Source of the DNA: Sphingobacteriales bacterium 46-32
Lineage (GTDB): Bacteria; Bacteroidota; Bacteroidia; Chitinophagales; Chitinophagaceae
DNA length: 24,000 nt
Direction: 5' to 3'
NCBI GenBank assembly: GCA_001898485.1
Contig: MKTY01000018.1
Coordinates: forward strand, 209,421-233,420
The notes beneath the pieces were generated by a model. That model was not told the DNA's origin. It saw only the letters and a list, made by a program, of their open reading frames with translations, and searched no databases. This document shows positions 2,429-21,130 of the stretch, piece by piece (position 1 is the stretch's first letter; each line of letters starts with the position of its first letter). A program made the translations under genes and the position numbers.

Positions 2429-3913
2429 CTATATTGCTGACCGTGAAAACTGGGGCAGCTCAAACCAGAATGCAGCACCATTGCCGGGAGTACTTGTCAC
2501 CTGTATGGATGACTGATGCAGCTCCAGAATTTTTTTGACGATAGCCAGACCAATACCCATTCCCTTTTTGGGTAATTCATCGTTATGCAATTGTTTGTAC
2601 CGTTCAAAAATATACGCCTGATCTTCGGGCGCAATACCGATACCGGTATCTGTTACCTGTACCTGTATGCCAGCGTGTAAAGCCTTAAGCCGGATAGTAA
2701 TGCTGCCTCCGTCGGGGGTAAACTTGAAAGCATTGTCGATGAGATTTTGCAATACCCGTTCAGTAAGTGCAATATCCGCAAATACCGGAGGCAGGCCGTC
2801 TGTGCACTCGAGGGTAAGTGTGATGTTGCGTTCCCGTGCTTTGAGCTGGTACGCAGAGAGTATATCTGCCACCAGCTCATTGAGCAGAAATTGTTCTTTT
2901 TCGGGGCTTACCTGATTGGCTTCCAGTTTGGCATATTGAAACAGCTGCTCTACGAGTACGGACAATTTTTTCGAACTCTCCTGTACTATTGTTAAATATT
3001 TTGTTTTTTCGGCATCGCTCAGGTTATCTTTTTTTATAAGCAGGGTTTCAGAGTAGCCCTGTATAATAGAGAGGGGAGTGCGCAGGTCGTGTGAGATATT
3101 GGCAATGAGTTCCTGTCGGAATTTATCAGTGGCACTGATCCTGTCAAAATTATCGACAATCACATCGGCCATTTCGTTGAAGGTAGAGGTAAGCATACCG
3201 AGGTTGCCACGGGCATGCCCTTCTATACGTGCGCCATAGTCGCCTTCTTTGAATTTGCGTACCACGCCGGCAATCTGGCAGATACTGTCTGTGATGAGAA
3301 AGAAGGTAATGATACCTACAATGAGCGCAATCAGCAATACGGAAAGAAAAAGGTATTTGCCCAGGCGAAATGAAAGATCGCTATTGAGGGTATTCAGGAT
3401 TTCTTTCTGCTTTTCGCTGGATAATACAGCATAGACGTACCCCATTAATACGCCATTTTCATAGAGCGGGGCTGCAGAGAAAATACTGGCTTCACCGGGC
3501 TGTTTGGGGTTGTCGCCCATAGGCTTTTCGCCGTCTTTTACAGCAAGCCATTCTTTTACCCGGCTGATGTTGACCTGGTGCTGCTGCACGGATTTGTCAG
3601 GTACTACAAAGTCGGTGATCCTGCCCGTAGTATCCAGCAGATAGACCTCCACACTCGGATTGGCTACCATCATGGAGTGTATGATATCGTGTGTGACGGT
3701 TGTATCGGGCTTCCCATTCTTCAGCGGATGAGTAACATTGGCCAGGTGGGAGGCCACATTGCCATACAGCTCCTGGTGTGCCCTGGTATAATAGGAGCGT
3801 GACAGTTTTGAGCCAATTACCATATACACCACTCCCAGTATGACCAGCAATACAGAAAATACAGCAGTTATTTTCCAAAACAACAGGTTGCCTCTTATAG
3901 TTTTTACAGACAT
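2429..3913 (-). CDS. Sensor histidine kinase (two TM segments, ~150-aa periplasmic sensor, HAMP, HisKA, HATPase_c)
   Basis: TM1 is LLFWKITAVFSVLLVILGVVYMVIG and TM2 is YLFLSVLLIALIVGIITFFLI. A HAMP-like region follows (VVRKFKEGDYGARIE...TSTFNEMADVI). Kinase boxes are present: H-box ELIANISHDLRTPLSII, N-box LQNLIDNAFKFT, G1 VTDTGIGI, G2 KGMGIGLAIV. It starts 12 nt after the response-regulator stop. Confidence 0.93.
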   Translation of the reverse strand: MSVKTIRGNLLFWKITAVFSVLLVILGVVYMVIGSKLSRSYYTRAHQELYGNVASHLANVTHPLKNGKPDTTVTHDIIHSMMVANPSVEVYLLDTTGRITDFVVPDKSVQQHQVNISRVKEWLAVKDGEKPMGDNPKQPGEASIFSAAPLYENGVLMGYVYAVLSSEKQKEILNTLNSDLSFRLGKYLFLSVLLIALIVGIITFFLITDSICQIAGVVRKFKEGDYGARIEGHARGNLGMLTSTFNEMADVIVDNFDRISATDKFRQELIANISHDLRTPLSIIQGYSETLLIKKDNLSDAEKTKYLTIVQESSKKLSVLVEQLFQYAKLEANQVSPEKEQFLLNELVADILSAYQLKARERNITLTLECTDGLPPVFADIALTERVLQNLIDNAFKFTPDGGSITIRLKALHAGIQVQVTDTGIGIAPEDQAYIFERYKQLHNDELPKKGMGIGLAIVKKILELHQSSIQVTSTPGNGAAFWFELPQFSRSAI

Positions 3914-3925
3914 ATATACGTTGCT

Positions 3926-4630
3926 TTATAATTCTTCATTGAAACGGTATCCGACTCCCCAGGTGGTCAGAATGAAACGGGGTTTTGAAATGTCTTCTTC
4001 AATTTTTCCGCGCAAGCGGTTTATATGCGAGTTGACGGTATGTTCATATCCCTCGAAGTCGTATCCCCAAACCAGGTTGAGCAGGCGTTTTCGGCTATAG
4101 CTTTTACCGGGGTTGGAAGCCAGTAGCGTGATCAGGTCAAACTCTTTTGGAGACAAATCCACCCTGTTTTCATGGAGCATAACCTTTCGTTTGTCTGTAT
4201 CAATCACCAGGCCCGAAAACCGGATGATTGAAGAAGCCGGTAAAACCTCCTGCGCAGATCCATAATCTTCTTTTCGCCGAAAGATCACTTTTACGCGGGC
4301 TATAAATTCTCTTACACTGAATGGTTTGGTGAGATAATCATCGGCTCCTGTTTCCAGTCCCAGTACTTTATCAATCTCTTCCGATTTGGCAGACAGTATC
4401 AGGATAGGGGTATGCCGGTCTGTTTGCCGGATGCGCCGGCATACATCCATTCCATTCATACCGGGCAGCATAAGGTCCAGGATCACCAGGTCAAATGATT
4501 GTTCCAGTACCGCGGTCAGCCCCTCCTGGCCATTCGCTACGGCTACAACTTCGCAGCCCAGGTCGTGCAAATGGATACTAAGCAGTTCCACAATATTGGC
4601 ATCGTCTTCCAGTAGCAATACCCTGTTCAT
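3926..4630 (-). CDS. OmpR/PhoB-family response regulator (receiver plus winged-helix DNA-binding domain)
   Basis: Receiver motifs are present: RVLLLEDD, DLVILDLMLPGMNG, PILILSAK. The C-terminal winged helix reads LSPKEFDLITLLASNPGKSYSRKRLLNLVWG...VNSHINRLRGKI...LTTWGVGYRF. I chose the start at the internal ATG (CAT 4628-4630, MNRVLLLEDD) instead of the track start at 4660. Confidence 0.92.
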   Translation of the reverse strand: MNRVLLLEDDANIVELLSIHLHDLGCEVVAVANGQEGLTAVLEQSFDLVILDLMLPGMNGMDVCRRIRQTDRHTPILILSAKSEEIDKVLGLETGADDYLTKPFSVREFIARVKVIFRRKEDYGSAQEVLPASSIIRFSGLVIDTDKRKVMLHENRVDLSPKEFDLITLLASNPGKSYSRKRLLNLVWGYDFEGYEHTVNSHINRLRGKIEEDISKPRFILTTWGVGYRFNEEL

Positions 4631-4695
4631 AGATTCCTGATTGAGATAAATGTTTTTCAAAATTCAGTAAAAAAAACCATCCGCTCTGCGCTGTG

Positions 4696-6235: not shown

Positions 6236-6703
6236 ATGAAAAGTATTATCTCTACACTGGCACTGCTGGTTTTGTTAAGCTGTCAGCTGTTTGGCCAGTC
6301 GGCAGATGTGCGCAGGAAGCAATTTAATCTCAGCAAATCAGGTCTGGCCATAGATGGTTACGATCCTGTTGCCTACTTTATAAGCAATAAAGCCATTGAG
6401 GGCCGCAAAGATATCAGCACGGCTTATGATGGCGTAACCTATCGGTTTGCCAATACGCAGAACAGAGACGCCTTTGCCGCCAATCCTGCAAAATATGAAC
6501 CGCAGTATGGCGGCTGGTGCGCCTATGCGATGGGCGCCAAAGGAGAGAAGGTGGAGGTTGATCCCGAAACGTTCAAGATCGTTAATGGTAAACTATACCT
6601 TTTTTATAACAGTTTTTTTAATAACACACTCAAAAGCTGGAATAAAGACGAAAGCCGCCTGAAGTCTAATGCAGATCAGAGTTGGACCAAATTTATCCGG
6701 TAA
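6236..6703 (+). CDS. YHS domain-containing (seleno)protein family member (Cys form), probable lipoprotein
   Basis: Signal/lipobox MKSIISTLALLVLLS-C. Family motifs are GYDPVAYF, YDGVTYRFAN..NRDAFAANPAKYEPQYGGWCAYAM and NGKLYLFYN. Confidence 0.85.
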   Translation: MKSIISTLALLVLLSCQLFGQSADVRRKQFNLSKSGLAIDGYDPVAYFISNKAIEGRKDISTAYDGVTYRFANTQNRDAFAANPAKYEPQYGGWCAYAMGAKGEKVEVDPETFKIVNGKLYLFYNSFFNNTLKSWNKDESRLKSNADQSWTKFIR

Positions 6704-6745: not shown

Positions 6746-7189
6746 ATGAGAAATGTATTTTTTGCAGCAGCGCTTATATTTTTTGCATCATGCAGCACAA
6801 CGGCCCAGAAACAGGAAGTTTTTACTGTAGATGGAAAGGCGATAAGAGGGTATGATCCGGTAGCTTTTTTCAAAGAGTCGAAACCTGTAAAGGGTGTTGA
6901 CAGTCTTTCGTATGTGTATAAAGAGGTGCTATGGCTGTTTTCGTCAGCAGAAAACCTGGCAGCATTCAAAGCCGACCCCGATAAATATACCCCCCAGTAT
7001 GGAGGCTACTGTGCTTATGGCACTGCAGATGGCCATAAGGCACCTACGCAGCCCGAGACCTGGACGATTGTAAATGATAAACTCTATTTCAATTATAACC
7101 TGAAAGTAAAGCAATCGTGGGATAAAAATCGTGCAGCCCTGATAGAGAAAGCAGACGAACAATGGCCGGCTGTAAAACAACAGAAATAA
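6746..7189 (+). CDS. YHS domain-containing (seleno)protein family member (Cys form), probable lipoprotein; tandem paralog
   Basis: Lipobox ALIFFAS-C. Motifs are GYDPVAFF, LWLFSSAENLAAFKADPDKYTPQYGGYCAYG and NDKLYFNYN. It has the same architecture as the upstream gene, 42 nt away. Confidence 0.85.
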   Translation: MRNVFFAAALIFFASCSTTAQKQEVFTVDGKAIRGYDPVAFFKESKPVKGVDSLSYVYKEVLWLFSSAENLAAFKADPDKYTPQYGGYCAYGTADGHKAPTQPETWTIVNDKLYFNYNLKVKQSWDKNRAALIEKADEQWPAVKQQK

Positions 7190-7634: not shown

Positions 7635-8128
7635 TGAGTCAGCAAATAGGTCAACCTGCCACAGCATTGATATACCAGCTGATCACATTACTGGAAAATC
7701 TATCTGATGAGCAGTATGTGAGAAAAATTTCATTATTGTCGAAAGCATCTCTTGGGCAGCATACCCGTCATATTATCGAGTTTTTCCTGGAGCTGGAAAA
7801 AGGGTATAATACTGGTATTGTCAATTATGATAGCAGGGAGCGCGATCGTGTTATAGAAACGAAGCGCCATTTTGCGATAGAAACTTTGCTGTATATTAAT
7901 GCCGGTATTGAAAAGCCCGACAAACTTATGGCGCTGAAGACTGATTATGAATCAGAAAACAGCATCTCTACCAGCTATCATCGTGAGCTGCTTTATGCGA
8001 TGGAGCATACTGTTCATCATATGGCCCTGTTAAGGATAGGAGTAGGGATCATATCAAATGTAGTATTGCCAGAAAACTTTGGTGTGGCGGCTTCTACTAT
8101 CAAATACCGGAATCAATGTGCACAGTAA
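7634..8128 (+). CDS. DinB-like (DinB_2/YfiT-type four-helix bundle) protein
   Basis: 164 aa with a candidate His triad: GQHTRHIIEFF near the N-terminus and MEHTVHHMALL near the C-terminus. The start ATG overlaps the DoxX stop (TAATG at 7632-7636). Confidence 0.75.
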   Translation: MSQQIGQPATALIYQLITLLENLSDEQYVRKISLLSKASLGQHTRHIIEFFLELEKGYNTGIVNYDSRERDRVIETKRHFAIETLLYINAGIEKPDKLMALKTDYESENSISTSYHRELLYAMEHTVHHMALLRIGVGIISNVVLPENFGVAASTIKYRNQCAQ

Positions 8129-9906
8129 CGTATATACCAACATCTAAGGGGGCCTATCTCACATCCAACAGAGATGAAAGTACACAGCGTGGCAGGGCCC
8201 TGCCACCGGCACAGTATGATTGCAATGGTGATAAACTCATTTATCCGAAGGATCCGGATGCGAACGGTAGCTGGATTGCACTGAAGCAAAGCGGCGATGC
8301 TGCGGTATTGCTCAACGGAGCCTTTATCAGGCATGAGCGGCAACAGGTATACCGCAAAAGCCGTGGATTGATTTTTCTGGAAATAATGGCCGGCAGCAAT
8401 CCCCCCGATCATTTTTTACAAATAGTGTTGGATGGAATCGAGCCCTTTACACTGATACTTTTTAATAGCAAACAACTCTGGGAATGCCGCTGGGATGGGT
8501 ACAAAAAGTATAAGGTTTTGCTGAATGCATCAAGGCCTTATATCTGGTCTTCTGCCACGCTCTATCACAGGGATGTGACGGAGGAAAGAAAACGCTGGTT
8601 TCTGCAATGGCTTTCTTCTGCCCGTGAGTTGAATACCGCAAAGATCATGACGTTTCACCAGTCTGCGGGCAAAGGTGATTTATACAATGGATTAGTGATA
8701 AACAGAGCGAATAAAATGCGTACAGTGAGTATTACTTCCGTTAAGATAAATGCAGATAAACCTGCTATGAGTTACCAGGATCTGGAAGAAGGAACCAACA
8801 CGGTAAAAATATTTGACCGGACTTCGGCTGGCAAAGACAGTCGCTTTTTAACAAATGCAAACTGGTTTATCCGCAAACTGAAAATCCGGATCACGAATTG
8901 GGAATACTGGCCCTCGCAGCTGGTATATGGGCCTCTTTATTTGTACTGGCTCTGGTTAAGCCTGAAAGCAAGGTCTTTCTTTTTCTTTAGTGCGGCTAAC
9001 CCCGGCCTCCAGTATGCGGGTTTTATACACGAGAAAAAAAGTGATATCTACCCTTTAATTCCCCAGCAGTATTATCCGCGAACAAAGCTTTTCAAAACAG
9101 GCGAACTCCCCGTTGTAGTGATGGAGGAATTAAAAAGAGCGAAGCTTGTTTTTCCCTTAATAGCCAAGCCGGATATTGGGGAAAAGGGAAAACAGGTAAA
9201 GCTGCTGCATACGGAAAATGAACTGTTTCAGTATATCGGTCGCAGTAAGGTCGATTTTTTGGTACAGGAACATATCGGTTATGAGCAGGAGGCAGGTATT
9301 TTTTATTATCGTATACCCGGTGAAGCAAGCGGACATATTTCCGGTATCGTGGGAAAAGAATTTTTGTCAGTCACTGGCGATGGTAAGTCCAGTATCCGTG
9401 ATTTACTGAAAAGAGAAGATCGTTTCCTGCTGCAACTGCCGGCGCTTCAGTATACATATGGCTGTTTACTGGACAAGGTACTGGCAGATGGCGTAAAGCA
9501 TATACTCGTTCCTTATGGTAACCATAGCCGGGGAGCAAAGTTTGTTGACCTGAAACATAAAATTTCGGATGCCCTTACTGATACGATTGATGCCGTTTGC
9601 CAGCAGATTCCGGGCTTCTATTATGGCCGGCTAGATATACGGTTTAAATCCTGGGAAGAACTGGCCGAAGGCAAAAACTTTAGTATTATCGAATTGAATG
9701 GTGCAGGCAGCGAGCCAACTCATATGTACGATCCCGGGCATTCGCTTTTTTATGCATGGGGAGAGATCTGCCGGCACTGGCGGCTTCTTTACCGGATCAG
9801 TCAGTTGAATGTACGCGATAAAAAACTTCCCCTGATGACTACCGGTGAGGGGATAAAGATGTACAGGGACCATCGCCAGTATTTAAAGCAGATCGTAAAA
9901 GTATAA
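8116..9906 (+). CDS. Fusion protein: N-terminal NRDE/TANGO2-like domain, hydrophobic linker, C-terminal ATP-grasp ligase domain
   Basis: 596-aa uninterrupted ORF. The N-terminus MCTVTYIPTSKGAYLTSNRDE carries the Met-Cys start and the NRDE motif that names the family. The linker is WEYWPSQLVYGPLYLYWLWLSLKARSFFFF. ATP-grasp motifs appear in the canonical order: FPLIAKPDIGEKGKQVKLL, FLVQEHI, GRLDIRF, SIIELNGAGSEP. The ORF overlaps the DinB stop by 13 nt. Confidence 0.88.
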   Translation: MCTVTYIPTSKGAYLTSNRDESTQRGRALPPAQYDCNGDKLIYPKDPDANGSWIALKQSGDAAVLLNGAFIRHERQQVYRKSRGLIFLEIMAGSNPPDHFLQIVLDGIEPFTLILFNSKQLWECRWDGYKKYKVLLNASRPYIWSSATLYHRDVTEERKRWFLQWLSSARELNTAKIMTFHQSAGKGDLYNGLVINRANKMRTVSITSVKINADKPAMSYQDLEEGTNTVKIFDRTSAGKDSRFLTNANWFIRKLKIRITNWEYWPSQLVYGPLYLYWLWLSLKARSFFFFSAANPGLQYAGFIHEKKSDIYPLIPQQYYPRTKLFKTGELPVVVMEELKRAKLVFPLIAKPDIGEKGKQVKLLHTENELFQYIGRSKVDFLVQEHIGYEQEAGIFYYRIPGEASGHISGIVGKEFLSVTGDGKSSIRDLLKREDRFLLQLPALQYTYGCLLDKVLADGVKHILVPYGNHSRGAKFVDLKHKISDALTDTIDAVCQQIPGFYYGRLDIRFKSWEELAEGKNFSIIELNGAGSEPTHMYDPGHSLFYAWGEICRHWRLLYRISQLNVRDKKLPLMTTGEGIKMYRDHRQYLKQIVKV

Positions 9907-12102: not shown

Positions 12103-14337
12103 TTATCGCAGTACATAGGTGAGCTGCACAATATTCCACAGCATATAATTAAATGAACCCTGTCCGTTGCAACGGCTGCATTTGATCTGCTCTTCGGTGG
12201 TATAGCCCTTTGTGGTGGTAGTTTTGGTAGTGGTGGTTTCTTTTGACCCGCGCACTTCTTTGTAGCTGTTGGTTGTTGGATCCCAAACTCTTTCCCAGGT
12301 TGGTGTGGTATTGCTCGAAGTCTCGGTCTTTGAAGTTCCATTTACCTTTCTGCTTATTGTAGTATAGCCGCTTCCTTCGCAATCGGGGCACCTGTGCTGA
12401 TCTGTAGTTTTGAAATCAATTTTATAACCTCCCAGGGCAATGGCGTCAAACGATATTTTCGCGCCATTAATTTCACCGAAGATCTTGTTCCCTTTTAATT
12501 CTATTTTCTCAAAGACGGGATAAAGCAAGACCTTATCATCGGTGGTTTTTAACCCCCATCCGGCTGGTCTGTTTCTGAACTGATGTTTGTATAGCACTGC
12601 CTCTCTGCCGGGCAATTGCATAGTACCTCCGTTTGCACCCTCCAGCCAGTTATGGGGTTTACCGGTAGCAAGATCAAGGTAGGTATAAAAATTATCGGCC
12701 CGGTTTTTTGCGGTAACCATGTTTTCTTTGCTTATACTATACATGGTATCGTAACTACACGAAACAATAAAGTTATTTTCGCTGTCCAGTATACCTGTTT
12801 TATTGTTGATGACAATACGCCTGTAAGTTCCTTCTTCATCCATAAAAAAGCAGGGTGTTTCCTTTCCCGATCTGTCCAGCAGCGCATATCGGCCGTTATC
12901 TGATAGCTGTACAACAGCCCTTCCATTTTTAAATATCCCGGCTTTTTTATATAAAGTACTAAAGCCATTACCTGTAGAATCTATGTAAATATATTTTTCA
13001 TACCTGTCGCCGACCACCGCCAGACCTTCGGAGAAATCGCTGGCAGAGGCATACATGGGAGAGATAATTTCTCTACCGGTTTTGTCGATGTACCCATACA
13101 GGTTATTGATTTTTATCCTGGCCCGTCCATTGCGGAAACCATAGGCTTCGTCGTATTTAAATGGGATAACAATTTTGCCTGCCTGATCAATAAAACCATT
13201 TTTGTTTTTGAATCTTACCTGTGCCAGTCCGTCCGAAAAATCGGAGGCGTCTTCGTAAATGGCTGAAACGATTGTACTGCCTGTGCGGCTAATGAATCCG
13301 TAGGCACCACTTTGTTTTATACGGGCCCGGCCGTTTGAGAATGGGTACGCTTCTTCAAAGGTTGCAGCAATAACCTCTTTTCCGGTTTTATCTATAAATC
13401 CCCAGGTGCCGCCACTGCTGCTACCGGGGTAGGCAACCATGGGCGTTTGTACAGCTGCCAGGCCTTCTGTAAAATTGCGGGCCATTGTGTATTTGGCCGG
13501 GATCACTATCTGTCCGTTTGCATCCCTGAATCCATAGTTATAGAAATCCTTGTAGAGCGTATAATTTACCTGTTCCGGTTGAAGTATAACCTGGCGGCCT
13601 GTTTTATCGACATAGAACTCTGCTTCATCTGATGCTACTTTGGCCCGTCCATCTTTGAAATTTTCGGCTGAGGTATACAGCGCCGAAATGATCTCTTTTC
13701 CGGTCTTATCAATATAGCCATAATGCAAGCCGGACAATACCCTGGCCATATCATCCGAAAAATCGCTGATATAGCCGTATTCCGCAGACTTTTTGTTGCC
13801 TGACTGATCAATTAGAAAATAACTGTCTTTGAGCGCTACAATAGCGACGCCCTGGTCAAAATCCCTGGCCTCTTTGTATATTACCGGTATAACTTCTTTC
13901 CCTGTCTTATCTATGAATCCCCATTTTGCATCTTTCCCTTTGCCTGCCGAAATCCGGTACAGGCCATCTGCATATTTTCCTATATAATTATATTTAACGG
14001 GAGTTATCTCTTTTCCGGATTTGTCCAGTAGTCCCCATTTGCCATTTATTTCCACCTGGGCAATATCTCCTGAAAAATTATCCGCTCCATCATATTTTAA
14101 GGGTATAACCAGTTTTCCCGTTTTGTCAATAAATCCCCTTTTGTTGTTGAGAATAACAAGGGCCATGTCGCCTTCGAAAAGAAAAGCCATATCGTACTGT
14201 GGCTCAACGATGATCTGGTCGTTGGCATCACGGTAGCCCCATTTGCCGTTCACAACAAACGGTTTAAGCTGCTGGCTGGCTGCACTTAGTATGCCGGCAA
14301 AAAAAATACAGACTGTTATAAGTGTTGATTTAATCAT
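12103..14337 (-). CDS. Secreted WG (KWG)-repeat protein with a C-terminal pair of DnaJ-type CxxCxGxG motifs
   Basis: Signal peptide MIKSTLITVCIFFAGILSAASQ. It has roughly 15 repeats of the WG motif (KWGFIDKTGKEVIP..Y..A..F..G.A.V type). The C-terminus carries CPDCEGSG (from nt 12390) and CSRCNGQG (12157-12180), separated by a Thr/Ser/Lys-rich spacer. Confidence 0.9.
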   Translation of the reverse strand: MIKSTLITVCIFFAGILSAASQQLKPFVVNGKWGYRDANDQIIVEPQYDMAFLFEGDMALVILNNKRGFIDKTGKLVIPLKYDGADNFSGDIAQVEINGKWGLLDKSGKEITPVKYNYIGKYADGLYRISAGKGKDAKWGFIDKTGKEVIPVIYKEARDFDQGVAIVALKDSYFLIDQSGNKKSAEYGYISDFSDDMARVLSGLHYGYIDKTGKEIISALYTSAENFKDGRAKVASDEAEFYVDKTGRQVILQPEQVNYTLYKDFYNYGFRDANGQIVIPAKYTMARNFTEGLAAVQTPMVAYPGSSSGGTWGFIDKTGKEVIAATFEEAYPFSNGRARIKQSGAYGFISRTGSTIVSAIYEDASDFSDGLAQVRFKNKNGFIDQAGKIVIPFKYDEAYGFRNGRARIKINNLYGYIDKTGREIISPMYASASDFSEGLAVVGDRYEKYIYIDSTGNGFSTLYKKAGIFKNGRAVVQLSDNGRYALLDRSGKETPCFFMDEEGTYRRIVINNKTGILDSENNFIVSCSYDTMYSISKENMVTAKNRADNFYTYLDLATGKPHNWLEGANGGTMQLPGREAVLYKHQFRNRPAGWGLKTTDDKVLLYPVFEKIELKGNKIFGEINGAKISFDAIALGGYKIDFKTTDQHRCPDCEGSGYTTISRKVNGTSKTETSSNTTPTWERVWDPTTNSYKEVRGSKETTTTKTTTTKGYTTEEQIKCSRCNGQGSFNYMLWNIVQLTYVLR

Positions 14338-18264: not shown

Positions 18265-19248
18265 CTATCTGGCTTTCTTTTTTTGTCTTTCCTGTTTTCT
18301 GAAATAACCCCGGAAAAGGATATTGTGCCGGGCAGCTTCCAGCAACTCATTGAAACTAGTGGTTCCTTTTTCAATGTTTTGGAGACTATTGGCAATATTC
18401 GCTGCCATTACTGAGTCTTTCAGCAGAGCGGCAACGGGTCCCTTGCCGGTGTTGACTTCGTTGTAGAGGTTGCCGACAGTCATATTGAGGTTCCCGGCCA
18501 GTTCGTAAGCCTCATCGCCAACCTGCCTGATTTTTTCAATGGCCAGGTTGAGGTTGGCTGCTAGTGATGTATCAGTAATAAATGCTCCCAGCGATCCTTT
18601 TCCTGCTTTGATATCTGTTACCATCAAATTGAGCGCATGTGTCATATCCCGGGCGTGCGCCGTTGCCAGTTGTATGTTTGTTGCCGATGTTCGGATATTT
18701 TCGGGAAGTGATTTGTCCTCGAGCAATTCCCAGATCACTTTACTGTTGCTGATTCTGTGCATGGTTATTTTCAGGTCTGCGGCAATATCTGAAATGTCTT
18801 CACTGGTTTTCGCAAGTTTCTGCAGCAGTCTGTCGGTATCAAAGGTTTCCTGGCAGGCCAGGATGTCTCCGTCCTGTACAGTGGCAGCGTTTCCTCTCAC
18901 GGGTATAATATTCACCACTTTGTTGCCCACCAGCCCATCGGTACCAATCGATGCCAGTGCATTTTTCCGGATATGTTTCTTTAAACTGCTCTTGATCAGC
19001 ATCACCACTTCAATAGTGGTGTCGTTCAGCACAGTTATTTCCCGGACGGTGCCTGCCTGTATACCAGAAAACCGGATATTATTGCCTGCGGTAAGCCCCT
19101 GTACATTCGGGAACCGTGCGCTGAGCTGAAAGTTGTCGCCAAAAAGATTTTGATTTTTGCCGATTACATATAACAGGATGATTAAAAAAAGCAGCCCTGC
19201 CAGTACGAATACGCCAAGTTTGATATTTCTTACCGATGTATTTCCCAT
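18265..19248 (-). CDS. mlaD: MlaD/MCE family protein (lipid-transport substrate-binding component)
   Basis: N-terminal TM anchor IKLGVFVLAGLLFLIILLYVIG. The MCE domain reads FPNVQGLTAGNNIRFSGIQAGTVREI...GLVGNKVVNI, followed by a long helical C-terminal region. It lies immediately downstream of the ABC ATPase and permease genes. Confidence 0.88.
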   Translation of the reverse strand: MGNTSVRNIKLGVFVLAGLLFLIILLYVIGKNQNLFGDNFQLSARFPNVQGLTAGNNIRFSGIQAGTVREITVLNDTTIEVVMLIKSSLKKHIRKNALASIGTDGLVGNKVVNIIPVRGNAATVQDGDILACQETFDTDRLLQKLAKTSEDISDIAADLKITMHRISNSKVIWELLEDKSLPENIRTSATNIQLATAHARDMTHALNLMVTDIKAGKGSLGAFITDTSLAANLNLAIEKIRQVGDEAYELAGNLNMTVGNLYNEVNTGKGPVAALLKDSVMAANIANSLQNIEKGTTSFNELLEAARHNILFRGYFRKQERQKKKAR

Positions 19249-19255
19249 AATGTGA

Positions 19256-20032
19256 TTATTCGAAAAATTTTTTCACTTTGGGGTCAGCAGATCGTTGCAA
19301 TTCTTCCATTGTCCCCAATGCATAGCATTTGCCTTCTATCAGCATGAGCACTTTATCGCTGGCCATTTTTACGCAGTTCATATCATGCGATATGATGATA
19401 GAAGCTGACCGGTATTTTTTCTGTATGCGTATCATCAGTTCGATGATTTCTTTTGCCGTTATGGGATCGAGTCCCGTAGTTGGCTCGTCATAAAGAATGA
19501 TATCCGGTTTCAGGATCAGTGTACGGGCCAGCGCTATCCGTTTTCTCATACCGCCCGATAGTTCGGCCGGCATCATATCGATGGTATGCTGCAGACCCAC
19601 GTCTTCGAGCGCATTCATGACCAGCGTATCCACTTCGTCCTGCCTGAGACGTATGGAATGACGGCGAAGCGGAAACTCCAGGTTTTGCCTTACACTCATT
19701 GAATCATACAAGGCATTGCTCTGAAAAAGAAAACCGATGCGTACCCTGATTTTATCCAGTTCCTCCATCGATAACTCCGGTATGTTTTGTCCCAGTACCC
19801 TGATGGTACCGCTATCGGGTTTTACCAGTCCAATGATACATTTGATAAGAACAGATTTACCCGAGCCGGATTTTCCCAGTACTACAATGTTTTCTTCTTT
19901 ATGCAGCAGCATGCTGAAATCAATCAAAACTTTATTACTTCCAAATGACTTGTACAGGTGCTCCACGGCAATAATCTCGTTGTCTTCGTCCGGCAGTGGA
20001 CTATTGCGTGTGTTATTGATTGTTTGCAGCAC
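19256..20032 (-). CDS. mlaF: ABC transporter ATP-binding protein, MlaF-like
   Basis: Walker A GKSGSGKS, signature LSGGMRKR, Walker B IILYDEPTTGLD, H-loop ISHD. The track ORF (to 20182) runs 142 nt into the permease gene and has no in-frame ATG there. I place the start at GTG (cac at 20030-20032), 8 nt after the permease stop. Confidence 0.85.
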   Translation of the reverse strand: MLQTINNTRNSPLPDEDNEIIAVEHLYKSFGSNKVLIDFSMLLHKEENIVVLGKSGSGKSVLIKCIIGLVKPDSGTIRVLGQNIPELSMEELDKIRVRIGFLFQSNALYDSMSVRQNLEFPLRRHSIRLRQDEVDTLVMNALEDVGLQHTIDMMPAELSGGMRKRIALARTLILKPDIILYDEPTTGLDPITAKEIIELMIRIQKKYRSASIIISHDMNCVKMASDKVLMLIEGKCYALGTMEELQRSADPKVKKFFE

Positions 20033-20040
20033 TTCTTTTT

Positions 20041-20811
20041 TTAATTTAATCCCAGTATATCGGTGATCTGTACAGCAACCAGGTCGATAAGGAAGATGAG
20101 TACAGAAGAAATGACCACGGCAGAGTTGGCTGATCTTCCCACTCCTTCGGTGCCTTTTGTGGAATAATATCCCCTGTAGCATCCGATAAGACCAACAGCA
20201 AAGCCAAAAAAGAATGATTTTACGAAAGCAGGAATTACATCGCCAAAGGAGAGGTTGCCAAGCACCTGGTTCCAGAAGAGATCAAAACTGGTAGTGCCCC
20301 TGATATTTACTCCCAGGAAGGAGCCATACAGAGAAATTGCATCACCGAGCATCACCAGTACTGGAAGCATAACTGTGCTGGCAAGCACTCTGGTCACCAC
20401 CAGGTACTTAAAAGGGTTGGTGCCCGACACCTCCATGGCGTCTATCTGTTCGGTTACTTTCATAGATCCCAGTTCGGCACCTATGCTGCTACCGATTTTA
20501 CCGGCAAAGATCAGGGCCACGATTACCGGACCAATCTCGCGTACAATAGCAATACCCACCATTGCCGGCAATTGCGATTCTACTCCATAATCAATCAGCG
20601 AGGGGCGTAGTTGCATGGTAAGAACCAACCCCATAATAAAAGCTGTCAGACCAATCAAAGGCAACGACCTGTATCCGATAATAAAACACTGCCGCAAAAA
20701 CTCGGCGATTTCATACCTGGGCCGAAAACATTGTGAAAAGAACCTGCCGGTGAACCTCAACAGGACACCTGTTTCTTCAAGAAAACTTTGCCAGGACCTT
20801 GATGGCGTCAT
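20041..20811 (-). CDS. mlaE: ABC transporter permease, MlaE-like
   Basis: Motifs are REIGPVIVALIFAGKIGSSIGAELGSMKVTEQIDAMEVSGTNPFKYLVVTRVLA plus multiple TM helices. The start is set at the internal ATG (CAT 20809-20811, MTPSRSWQSFLEE), giving 256 aa. The track start at 20943 would overlap the dodecin gene by 29 nt. Confidence 0.85.
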   Translation of the reverse strand: MTPSRSWQSFLEETGVLLRFTGRFFSQCFRPRYEIAEFLRQCFIIGYRSLPLIGLTAFIMGLVLTMQLRPSLIDYGVESQLPAMVGIAIVREIGPVIVALIFAGKIGSSIGAELGSMKVTEQIDAMEVSGTNPFKYLVVTRVLASTVMLPVLVMLGDAISLYGSFLGVNIRGTTSFDLFWNQVLGNLSFGDVIPAFVKSFFFGFAVGLIGCYRGYYSTKGTEGVGRSANSAVVISSVLIFLIDLVAVQITDILGLN

Positions 20812-20914
20812 AAATTCTGGTATATAATAATAGTTGGTTGCTGCAACAGGCAAATCGCTGATATATCCCGATGCTATTATGTAATTTTTCGTTCTGTAAG
20901 TTCTTTCGCTTATG

Positions 20915-21130
20915 TTATTTGCCGGCGGGCTTTTCGATTTCAAAGCTAATCTTTGCTGTGATACGGTAATCTGTAATCTTATTGTTTTTTACAGTTGCGC
21001 TGTGATCCTGCACATAAACAGACCGGATATTGTTCAGCGTACGACCTGCTTCTGTTACGGCCTTTTGGGCAGCATCTTCCCAACTCTTTTCTGAGTTGGC
21101 CATTACTTCGATTACTTTAAGAATTGCCAT
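20915..21130 (-). CDS. Dodecin family flavin-binding protein
   Basis: 71 aa. MAILKVIEVMANSEKSWEDAAQKAVTEAGRTLNNIRSVYVQDHSATVKNNKITDYRITAKISFEI fits the dodecin pattern (V.K.IE..G.S..S.EDA...A...A..T...I....V.......V......Y.V...V.F). Confidence 0.85.
   Translation of the reverse strand: MAILKVIEVMANSEKSWEDAAQKAVTEAGRTLNNIRSVYVQDHSATVKNNKITDYRITAKISFEIEKPAGK

Follow-up and report, generated by a model that had tools for sequence, protein, structure and literature searches.

The window analysed here (24,000 nucleotides of contig MKTY01000018.1, positions 209,421 to 233,420 of the forward strand, from the Chitinophagaceae assembly of Sphingobacteriales bacterium 46-32) contains an open reading frame (ORF) of 596 codons with a Met-Cys start (8116..9906, forward strand), which encodes a genuine and conserved single polypeptide made of three parts: an NRDE/TANGO2-like domain with a cysteine N-terminal nucleophile (Cys-Ntn), an aromatic helix, and an ATP-grasp ligase. 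Across the Bacteroidota loci that were compared, the genomic coupling of the NRDE domain with the ligase is obligate, either by fusion or by adjacency of the two genes, which is a Rosetta-stone pattern.

A three-part fusion protein

A script check placed SNRDE at residues 17-21, WEYWP at residues 262-266, AKPDIGEKGKQV at residues 350-361, VQEHI at residues 383-387, RLDIRF at residues 505-510 and IIELNGAGSEP at residues 524-534, and found every motif quoted by a first-pass annotation, made from the sequence alone, where that annotation had located it. The AlphaFold model of the fusion was built on the family alignment A1 (40 sequences, within which residues of the fusion are called invariant below) and has a mean predicted local distance difference test score (pLDDT) of 86.4, the only stretch below 50 being residues 237-242. 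When this model was compared with the PDB by Foldseek, the matches divided cleanly between TANGO2-type structures for the N-terminal half and ATP-grasp-type structures for the C-terminal half. Nearly all of the best 120 homologs (51-89% identity, about 580-625 amino acids) align at 99-100% coverage, with one fragment of 396 amino acids, and full-length homologs are present in complete genomes of Chitinophaga, Puia, Pedobacter and Mucilaginibacter. Base composition is uniform throughout the window. These proteins are already public under generic database names, the NCBI label on the fusion homologs being 'NRDE family protein'.

The NRDE/TANGO2-like domain

The profile PF05742 matches the whole protein with 37.5 bits (E=3.7e-9, gathering cutoff 22.6) and residues 1-235 alone with 40.8 bits, in agreement with the NRDE/TANGO2 domain that the first-pass annotation had assigned to those residues. 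The match is limited to residues 15-138, corresponding to profile positions 18-139 of 257; the later part of the domain is recognizable by fold only, and a phmmer search of the N-terminal half against the PDB found no TANGO2 chain. By fold, the best matches of this half are human TANGO2 (8sv7, E 3.2e-9, template modelling score 0.58 on the target; 9bwa, E 2.3e-9) and CV2077 (3gvz, E 1.5e-7), with isopenicillin N acyltransferase also among them, and the four-layer alpha-beta-beta-alpha fold of the predicted model matches that of the solved TANGO2.

Profile alignment of A1 with human TANGO2 by hhalign pairs C2 with C2, N18-R19-D20-E21 with N25-R26-D27-E28, R25 with R32 (a disease site in TANGO2), G51-x-W53 with G59-x-W61, and N67 with N75, and all of the aligned residues (C2, N18, R19, D20, E21, R25, G51, W53 and N67) are invariant. 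The human sequence used in this alignment agreed with about 20 residue numbers in a 2026 structure paper (PMC13044924). The catalytic set proposed there for TANGO2 comprises Cys2, Asn25, Arg26, Asp27, Asn75, Asn157 and Lys166, of which Asn157 is the oxyanion-hole asparagine and Lys166 stands for the arginine or lysine that positions the nucleophile (PMC13044924). Among the NRDE ORFs of related loci, all 80 start with MCTV, 76 of the 80 begin exactly at that methionine, and 73 of the 80 contain [ST][SAT]NRDE. Judged by its residues, the NRDE half is a propeptide-free Cys-Ntn domain whose alignable catalytic core is intact, and it looks catalytically competent.

The ATP-grasp ligase domain

Sequence profiles place the C-terminal half below threshold: RimK (PF08443) matches with 16-17 bits against a Pfam cutoff of 21, and the NCBIfam matches score 15-20 bits against cutoffs of 143-850 (TIGR02068, 15-17 against 850). 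When the A1 profile was compared with the PDB, only ATP-grasp chains were matched (the CphA2-like 7ta5 and 8fxh, then 2pn1, GshAB, cyanophycin synthetase, LysX, TTLL7 and Ddl), and Foldseek ranked CphA2 (7ta5, E 1.2e-9) first, followed by CphA1, GshAB and many Ddl structures, with probability 1.00 and E values from 1e-9 to 1e-6. The invariant residues comprise K351-P-D-x-G355 and G358, Q384-E385, R505-L-D507 and E526-L-N528. K351, in 'iaKPdiG', aligns with the lysine of 'vvKPviG' in CphA2, with which the rest of this set also aligns, and G504-R505-L506-D507 and E526-L527-N528 align weakly (E 0.078) with G254-R255-I256-D257 and E270-A271-N272 of DdlB. Thus the ATP-grasp domain that the annotation had read from motifs at about residues 300-560, although sub-threshold by sequence, is clear by PDB profile and by fold, and the ligase half looks like a competent, catalytically complete ATP-grasp enzyme of the cyanophycin synthetase/GshAB/Ddl type.

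An exhaustive search with residues 251-596 retrieved 2,796 representative clusters at E<=1e-3, of which 1,071 were at E<=1e-30. Most of these relatives are standalone proteins of 330-385 amino acids that include the WEYWP helix, and other architectures are LysE-ligase, VTT/DedA-ligase and abhydrolase-VTT-ligase. The ligase module is therefore a large, mostly standalone family that is captured by no curated model. One protein of a metagenomic locus (P0374, 1121 amino acids; L084 1790-5155) has the order NRDE-abhydrolase-VTT-ligase; its gene lies downstream of a DinB_2 gene and adjoins genes for an OlsF-like acyltransferase and a TMEM164-like protein.

The aromatic helix

The stretch of residues 262-292, noted earlier as aromatic and hydrophobic, has 12 aromatic residues out of 31, compared with 12% in the protein as a whole, and turns out to belong to the ligase module, where it is conserved and has the character of a membrane-interface anchor, rather than being a linker. 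W262, E263, W265, P273, W278, S287, F290, F291 and N295 are highly conserved, and the helix is kept in standalone ligases. Its Kyte-Doolittle value of 0.35-0.64 is not that of a classical transmembrane segment, but the Wimley-White scales give it a strong preference for the membrane (-12.7 kcal/mol for octanol, -10.3 kcal/mol for the interface). In the LysE-ligase and VTT-ligase fusions, it follows the last transmembrane helix, with a basic linker between them. On the basis of the hydrophobicity scales and these fusion partners, the aromatic helix may serve as a monotopic anchor, bringing the ligase and NRDE domains to the membrane, and because the ATP-grasp domain and the N-terminal cysteine exposed by removal of methionine both need the cytoplasm, the face of the membrane on which they would lie is the cytoplasmic one.

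Fused, split and ligase-only loci

A relative of the fusion is carried by at least 591 species-representative genomes of Chitinophagales, Sphingobacteriales, Cytophagales and Flavobacteriales. ORFs were called and classified in a survey of 84 loci (numbered with the prefix L). The fused form was found in 26 (Chitinophaga, Puia, Pedobacter, Mucilaginibacter, most Dyadobacter and the present window); 53 have adjacent genes for an NRDE protein of 224-277 amino acids and a ligase of 344-359 amino acids (Flavobacterium, Maribacter, Ferruginibacter, Sediminibacterium); and three or four have the ligase only (L064 of Dawidia, L068 of Parachryseolinea, L077). The Rosetta-stone logic suggested from the window by itself is thereby upheld, since the two halves are either fused or separate and adjacent. 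The coupling of NRDE with the ligase is also found at L086 and L088 and in P0374.

Of the 53 split loci (numbered between L013 and L083), 48 have the NRDE and ligase genes in one reading frame, a share far above the one in three expected for independent genes and probably due to common descent, with a stop codon gained or lost in a very short spacer. The junction consists of a stop codon and 0-117 nucleotides (multiples of three; 0-18 nucleotides in most), followed by a start codon just before the basic helix. The stop codon is TAA in 43 loci, TGA in seven and TAG in three, and is sometimes doubled. The split form is thus an ordinary two-gene arrangement, which involves no selenocysteine and is not obviously a case of readthrough: selenocysteine insertion and programmed readthrough were both considered and rejected because of the predominance of TAA, the several double in-frame stops and the start codon that follows. 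A low level of readthrough may nonetheless occur.

A neighbour-joining tree built from the ligase domain has the in-frame split arrangement at its base and widely distributed, and the fusions fall essentially into a single derived clade (five parsimony changes), so the window gene comes from a lineage in which the stop codon of the linker was lost. The ligase-only loci nest inside the fused clade, so their NRDE domain was lost secondarily. These are loci of Cytophagales that keep the YHS, DoxX, DinB, ligase and LysE genes without NRDE (ligase at 10016-11107 in L064 and at 9998-11071 in L077; also L068). Two-gene orthologous loci, which the first-pass annotation had named together with a frameshift error as grounds for doubting the fusion, are thus common, and the frameshift error falls away, the fused ORF being a conserved derived clade. 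The idea that two genes were run together into this ORF by an assembly error, a frameshift or gene decay has practically no chance of being right: the many related loci with a stop in the linker would suit it, but it is refuted by the near-uniform full length of the best 120 homologs, several of them from complete genomes, and by the coherence of the fused clade, and the linker is in frame with clear conservation in both halves.

The DinB-fold partner

The tightest and near-universal partner of the NRDE/ligase module is a DinB-fold protein, encoded in 81 of the 84 loci and always directly upstream; each of the five distant loci that were examined (L084, L086, L087, L088 and L089) likewise has the gene upstream. 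PF12867 (DinB_2) is matched by 29 of 33 family members. A sequence profile compared with the PDB matched nothing meaningful and a fold search was needed: the AlphaFold model (pLDDT 89.8) has DinB/YfiT structures as all of its top Foldseek matches (2f22, 3gor, 3dka, 2qe9, 6iz2, 8f5v and 1rxq), including mycothiol S-transferase and YfiT. The invariant residues are H43, H46, E49, H125, H128 and H129, the histidines being putative metal ligands. Characterized relatives with this fold are thiol-dependent metalloenzymes.

In the window, the 3' end of the DinB gene (CAA TGT GCA CAG TAA) overlaps the ATG TGC ACA GTA that begins the fusion gene (8116-8128). The cysteine near the C-terminus of the DinB-fold protein (C-A-Q) is nearly invariant because this 13-nucleotide overlap contains, in the other frame, the codons of the invariant M-C-T-V, and it was on that account rejected as a functional or tagging site. 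The C-terminus is not conserved in the distant loci. An apparent DoxX-DinB fusion in Dyadobacter was likewise rejected as an ORF-calling artefact, produced by out-of-frame extension through the DoxX gene.

The conserved gene neighbourhood

In the window and in L001-L003, the order of genes is two YHS genes, a CoaB-like gene (in Mucilaginibacter and Pedobacter only), DoxX_2, DinB-fold, the fusion and usually a LysE-like gene (Table 1). A YHS gene is present in 62 or 63 of the 84 loci and DoxX_2 in 61 of 84. The cysteine of YGG[WY]CAY in the tandem YHS paralogs is about 98% conserved over 89 homologs and stands where other members of the NF041384 family have selenocysteine. A LysE-like gene is immediately downstream of the module in 40 of 80 loci, and in some others the downstream position is taken by a gene for DUF1223, a thioredoxin-like protein, MsrA, a HAD hydrolase or an alpha/beta-hydrolase. 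Eleven loci have an alpha/beta-hydrolase gene no more than 4 kb away, in several of them immediately downstream, and eight have a HAD gene at such a distance.

The CoaB-like protein is a standalone protein of 222-232 amino acids encoded inside the operon in six of the 84 loci (L002, 6358-7041; L003, 6403-7071; also L011, L020, L021 and L022, of Mucilaginibacter and Pedobacter), and matches CoaBC (E 4e-60) in the half that is the phosphopantothenate-cysteine ligase. A link to pantothenate and coenzyme A has been reported for TANGO2. At L002 (9785-10882) and also at L011, the LysE-like protein encoded downstream of the fusion (365-367 amino acids) is extended by a further hydrophobic segment and a thioredoxin/DsbD-gamma-like domain.

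Table 1. Positions in the window of the fusion gene, its parts and other annotated features
Feature	Coordinates	Strand	Evidence or remark
Divergent OmpR/HisKA two-component pair	2429-4660	-	Upstream of operon
Spondin-domain protein, 439 amino acids	4746-6065		NF038123, 216 bits; upstream of operon
YHS-domain (seleno)protein family member, 155 amino acids, secreted, signal-like hydrophobic N-terminus, single Cys in YGGWCAY	6236..6703	+	NF041384, 143 bits (cutoff 70)
Second YHS-domain (seleno)protein family member, 147 amino acids, lipoprotein-like N-terminus (FFASC), single Cys in YGGYCAY	6746..7189	+	NF041384, 154 bits
DoxX_2 integral membrane protein, 135 amino acids	7227..7634	+	PF13564, 28.6 bits (cutoff 26.3)
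DinB-fold protein, 164 amino acids	7634..8128	+	Last 13 nucleotides overlap start of fusion gene
Fusion gene	8116..9906	+	
NRDE/TANGO2-like Cys-Ntn domain, residues 1-235 (Cys2, N18-R19-D20-E21, R25, N67)	8116..8820	+	PF05742 above cutoff; fold match to 8sv7 and 9bwa
Variable low-confidence linker, residues 236-254	8821..8877	+	pLDDT below 50 at 237-242; indel-rich variable columns; site of stop and restart in split lineages
Basic helix and conserved aromatic helix (WEYWP to SFFFF), residues 255-297, putative membrane-interface anchor, N-terminal part of ligase module	8878..9006	+	Conservation, hydrophobicity scales, fusion context
ATP-grasp carboxylate-amine ligase domain, residues 298-596 and stop (K351, Q384-E385, R505-x-D507, E526-x-N528, SEPTH.YDP)	9007..9906	+	Profile, fold, invariant residues
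WG-repeat protein, 744 amino acids, almost entirely WG-containing beta repeats	12103-14337	-	PF14903, E 6e-114, 10 stretches
MlaD, ABC ATPase and MlaE lipid-transport set adjoining a BON-domain protein	18265-20943	-	Ordinary envelope housekeeping, unlinked to fusion

Comparison with known systems

The closest parallel in organization is the glutathionylspermidine synthetase/amidase of Escherichia coli (GspSA), which also has an N-terminal cysteine amidase and a C-terminal ATP-dependent carboxylate-amine ligase in one polypeptide. The amidase of GspSA has a CHAP (papain-like) fold, whereas the hydrolase of the fusion has an Ntn fold, and GspSA has no membrane helix and no DinB or LysE partner. 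Neither a CHAP nor a GspS family was found among the Pfam, NCBIfam, PDB-profile or top-50 Foldseek matches of the fusion, and the likeness is one of logic, not of homology. The cysteine amidase of GspSA is switched off by oxidation, so that the product accumulates under stress; a comparable switch would suit an operon with a redox theme.

Human TANGO2 (8sv7), CV2077 (3gvz) and Shewanella HtpA share with the fusion the Met-Cys start, the NRDE motif, the alpha-beta-beta-alpha Ntn fold and the equivalents of R32 and N75, but the NRDE domain of the fusion, at about 235 amino acids, is shorter and is fused or adjacent to a ligase, an arrangement that, to our knowledge, has not been reported for characterized members of the family. 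The best structural and profile matches of the ligase half, the G domain of CphA1/CphA2 and the ATP-grasp domain of GshAB, have in common with it the GDG.S.I..L insertion and the set of K, R-x-D and E-x-N residues; the fusion lacks the Mur-ligase-like M domain and the N domain of CphA as well as the GshA domain, and basic and aromatic helices replace the usual N-terminal subdomain of ATP-grasp enzymes.

The Anbu operon likewise combines an Ntn-fold hydrolase with an ATP-grasp amidoligase in a conserved operon (PMC6376114). Its hydrolase is a proteasome-like Thr-Ntn enzyme accompanied by alphaE and transglutaminase-like proteins, whereas that of the present module is an NRDE Cys-Ntn domain, and the Anbu operon has no DinB, LysE or YHS genes; conversely, alphaE and transglutaminase-like genes were found neither in the window nor in the surveyed loci. 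The DinB-fold partner shares the DinB/YfiT fold with bacillithiol and mycothiol S-transferases, MDMPI and the N-domain of EgtB, and it has invariant histidines, but its sequence similarity to characterized DinB enzymes is marginal. The ergothioneine pathway brings together a ligase (EgtA), a DinB-domain enzyme (EgtB) and an Ntn amidohydrolase that uses Cys2 (EgtC), although EgtA and EgtC belong to families different from those of the ligase and NRDE domains of the module.

Proposed function

The reading that we prefer, tentatively and with somewhat less than even confidence, is that the module is a ligase/amidase pair on the cytoplasmic side of the membrane, by which an amide-linked metabolite destined for export, and perhaps related to thiols, is both produced and trimmed. 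The ligase, held at the cytoplasmic face of the inner membrane by the aromatic helix, would activate an amino-acid-like carboxylate as an acyl phosphate and couple it to an amine, yielding an amide-linked small metabolite. Cys2 of the NRDE domain would hydrolyze an amide in the ligase product, or in a precursor or conjugate of that product; the DinB-fold protein would act on the same compound; and the LysE-like partner would export the metabolite toward periplasmic cysteine/selenocysteine and thioredoxin-fold proteins. The ligase and NRDE domains together would set the level of the metabolite, as in glutathionylspermidine synthetase/amidase, and it is by likeness to that enzyme that the two halves are proposed to make and break a single compound. 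The leading guess is that the metabolite is a cysteine- or thiol-containing amide. The thiol/redox theme, of modest strength, is drawn from the chemistry of DinB enzymes, the single cysteine or selenocysteine of the YHS proteins, the LysE-thioredoxin fusions, the DUF1223, thioredoxin-fold and MsrA neighbours and the CoaB-like paralog; the link to membrane and export is drawn from the interfacial helix, the LysE- and VTT-ligase fusions and the LysE-like gene that commonly lies downstream.

Several observations weigh against an exported, thiol-related metabolite made and trimmed by this pair. There is no LysE-like gene downstream of the fusion in the window, where a convergent TPR gene is found instead. 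Genes for thioredoxin-fold proteins, MsrA or AhpC lie within 4 kb in 15 of 83 loci, a modest frequency, and the enrichment of redox genes, by a rough estimate of Bacteroidota gene frequency, may be at most about twofold. The hhalign alignment with TANGO2 ends at residue 67, so the equivalents of Asn157 and Lys166 are not aligned, and S146 and R158 are candidates for them by conservation only. NRDE was lost from L064, L068 and L077 while the ligase was kept, so hydrolysis is dispensable for the module. Membrane association is a prediction from hydrophobicity scales and fusion partners, and a lipid substrate would be no worse a fit for the alpha/beta-hydrolase, HAD and VTT/DedA partners that recur. 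Even for TANGO2 itself, amide hydrolysis or acyl transfer is a proposal only (PMC13044924).

A larger claim, which we regard as possible but doubtful, is that DinB, NRDE, the membrane-anchored ligase and LysE or VTT together constitute an unrecognized pathway for a new exported amide metabolite (a low-molecular-weight thiol or an amphipathic amide) that serves in redox and stress protection of the envelope in aerobic Bacteroidota and beyond. If this were true, the NRDE part would identify an amide made by an ATP-grasp enzyme, and not heme, as the class of native substrate for the TANGO2 family.

The foremost alternative is remodelling of lipid head groups, in which the anchored ligase would work at the inner leaflet and amidate a free carboxylate, belonging to an amino acid linked to lipid or to some other amphipathic acid, the NRDE domain would remove an N-acyl group, and LysE or VTT/DedA would flip the product. 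Structural relatives of NRDE domains include acid ceramidase, NAAA, bile-salt hydrolase and penicillin V acylase. The interfacial helix is consistent with such a role, as are the fusions of the ligase to VTT/DedA and alpha/beta-hydrolase domains, among them the NRDE-abhydrolase-VTT-ligase protein, the alpha/beta-hydrolase and HAD genes of the neighbourhood, the resemblance of the fold to that of lipid-amide Cys-Ntn hydrolases and the fatty-acyl pocket proposed for TANGO2 (PMC13044924). OlsF-like or OlsB/OlsA-like acyltransferase genes are beside two distant clusters, but aminolipid acyltransferase genes are in none of the 84 main loci, and a link to the aminolipid OlsB/OlsA/OlsF genes was for this reason rejected. 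Lipid remodelling also leaves the DinB, YHS, thioredoxin-fold and CoaB-like partners unexplained, and the closest ATP-grasp relatives use soluble amino acids or peptides; overall we judge it unlikely.

Two other explanations appear more improbable still. The ligase might add amino acids to a carboxylate of a protein or peptide, as do RimK, tubulin-tyrosine ligase and LysX and as proposed for the Anbu operon, with the NRDE domain removing the tag and the DinB-fold protein as a possible target. Weak sequence matches to RimK, LysX and TTLL7, the precedent of an Ntn hydrolase with an ATP-grasp enzyme in the Anbu operon (PMC6376114) and the translational coupling of the DinB gene to the fusion by overlap would agree with tagging, but the best folds are CphA, GshAB and Ddl rather than RimK, neither the window nor the surveyed loci have a gene for a small precursor peptide, alphaE or transglutaminase, and the C-terminal cysteine of the DinB-fold protein, at a terminus unconserved in distant loci, is forced by the overlap with the MCTV codons. 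The remaining explanation, for which the chances seem equally slim, is that the NRDE domain is a non-catalytic module that binds heme or acyl-CoA, in line with proposals made for HtpA and TANGO2, and delivers the ligand to the ligase or regulates the ligase. Heme binding has been reported for bacterial HtpA (PMC10470608) and acyl-CoA binding is cited for TANGO2 (PMC13044924, PMC12782551), but a role that involves heme is contested (PMC12782551, PMC13044924), the neighbourhood contains neither heme nor cytochrome-maturation genes, and the strict invariance of the N-terminal cysteine, NRDE, R25 and N67 in fused and split forms is what a catalytic Ntn domain predicts.

Relation to TANGO2

Deficiency of TANGO2 causes a severe human metabolic disease. 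The activity of the protein is disputed, with heme trafficking, acyl-CoA binding and Cys-Ntn hydrolysis all having been put forward (PMC10470608, PMC12782551, PMC13044924). Full-text literature searches, which did not cover Iyer et al. 2009, found no report that joins NRDE/TANGO2 with ATP-grasp or DinB, and such architectures are not discussed in the paper on bacterial HtpA (PMC10470608). A bifunctional or operonic combination of ligase and amidase is a kind of system already known, and the value of the present one is as a lead to the function of TANGO2: the repeated fusion or adjacency of NRDE and ligase, with conservation of the alignable catalytic residues, is independent comparative evidence that suggests an enzymatic, amide-directed role for NRDE domains. 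The operon is present in cultivable and genetically accessible genera (Flavobacterium, Chitinophaga, Pedobacter), which offer a tractable route to the native substrate of NRDE.

Other genes of the window

The spondin gene and the two-component pair upstream may regulate the operon. A spondin gene accompanies the operon in eight loci (in Chitinophaga and Dyadobacter, for example) and a two-component pair in about 20. The two-component system was considered as a metal sensor, and this was rejected because it has only generic OmpR/HisKA matches, below every equivalog cutoff. A role in defence was also set aside, there being no PADLOC match among the core genes. A scan for sigma-70 promoters and terminators was uninformative for this type of organism. 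The remaining genes of the window are ordinary chromosomal ones, encoding a DAO oxidoreductase, MlaD/F/E, the BON-domain protein, a polysaccharide deacetylase and glucokinase. Among the closest homologs, which have 89-94% identity, are some named as proteins of Chitinophagaceae metagenome-assembled genomes. A large protein similar to the WG-repeat protein is encoded downstream of the cluster in L064 and L068.

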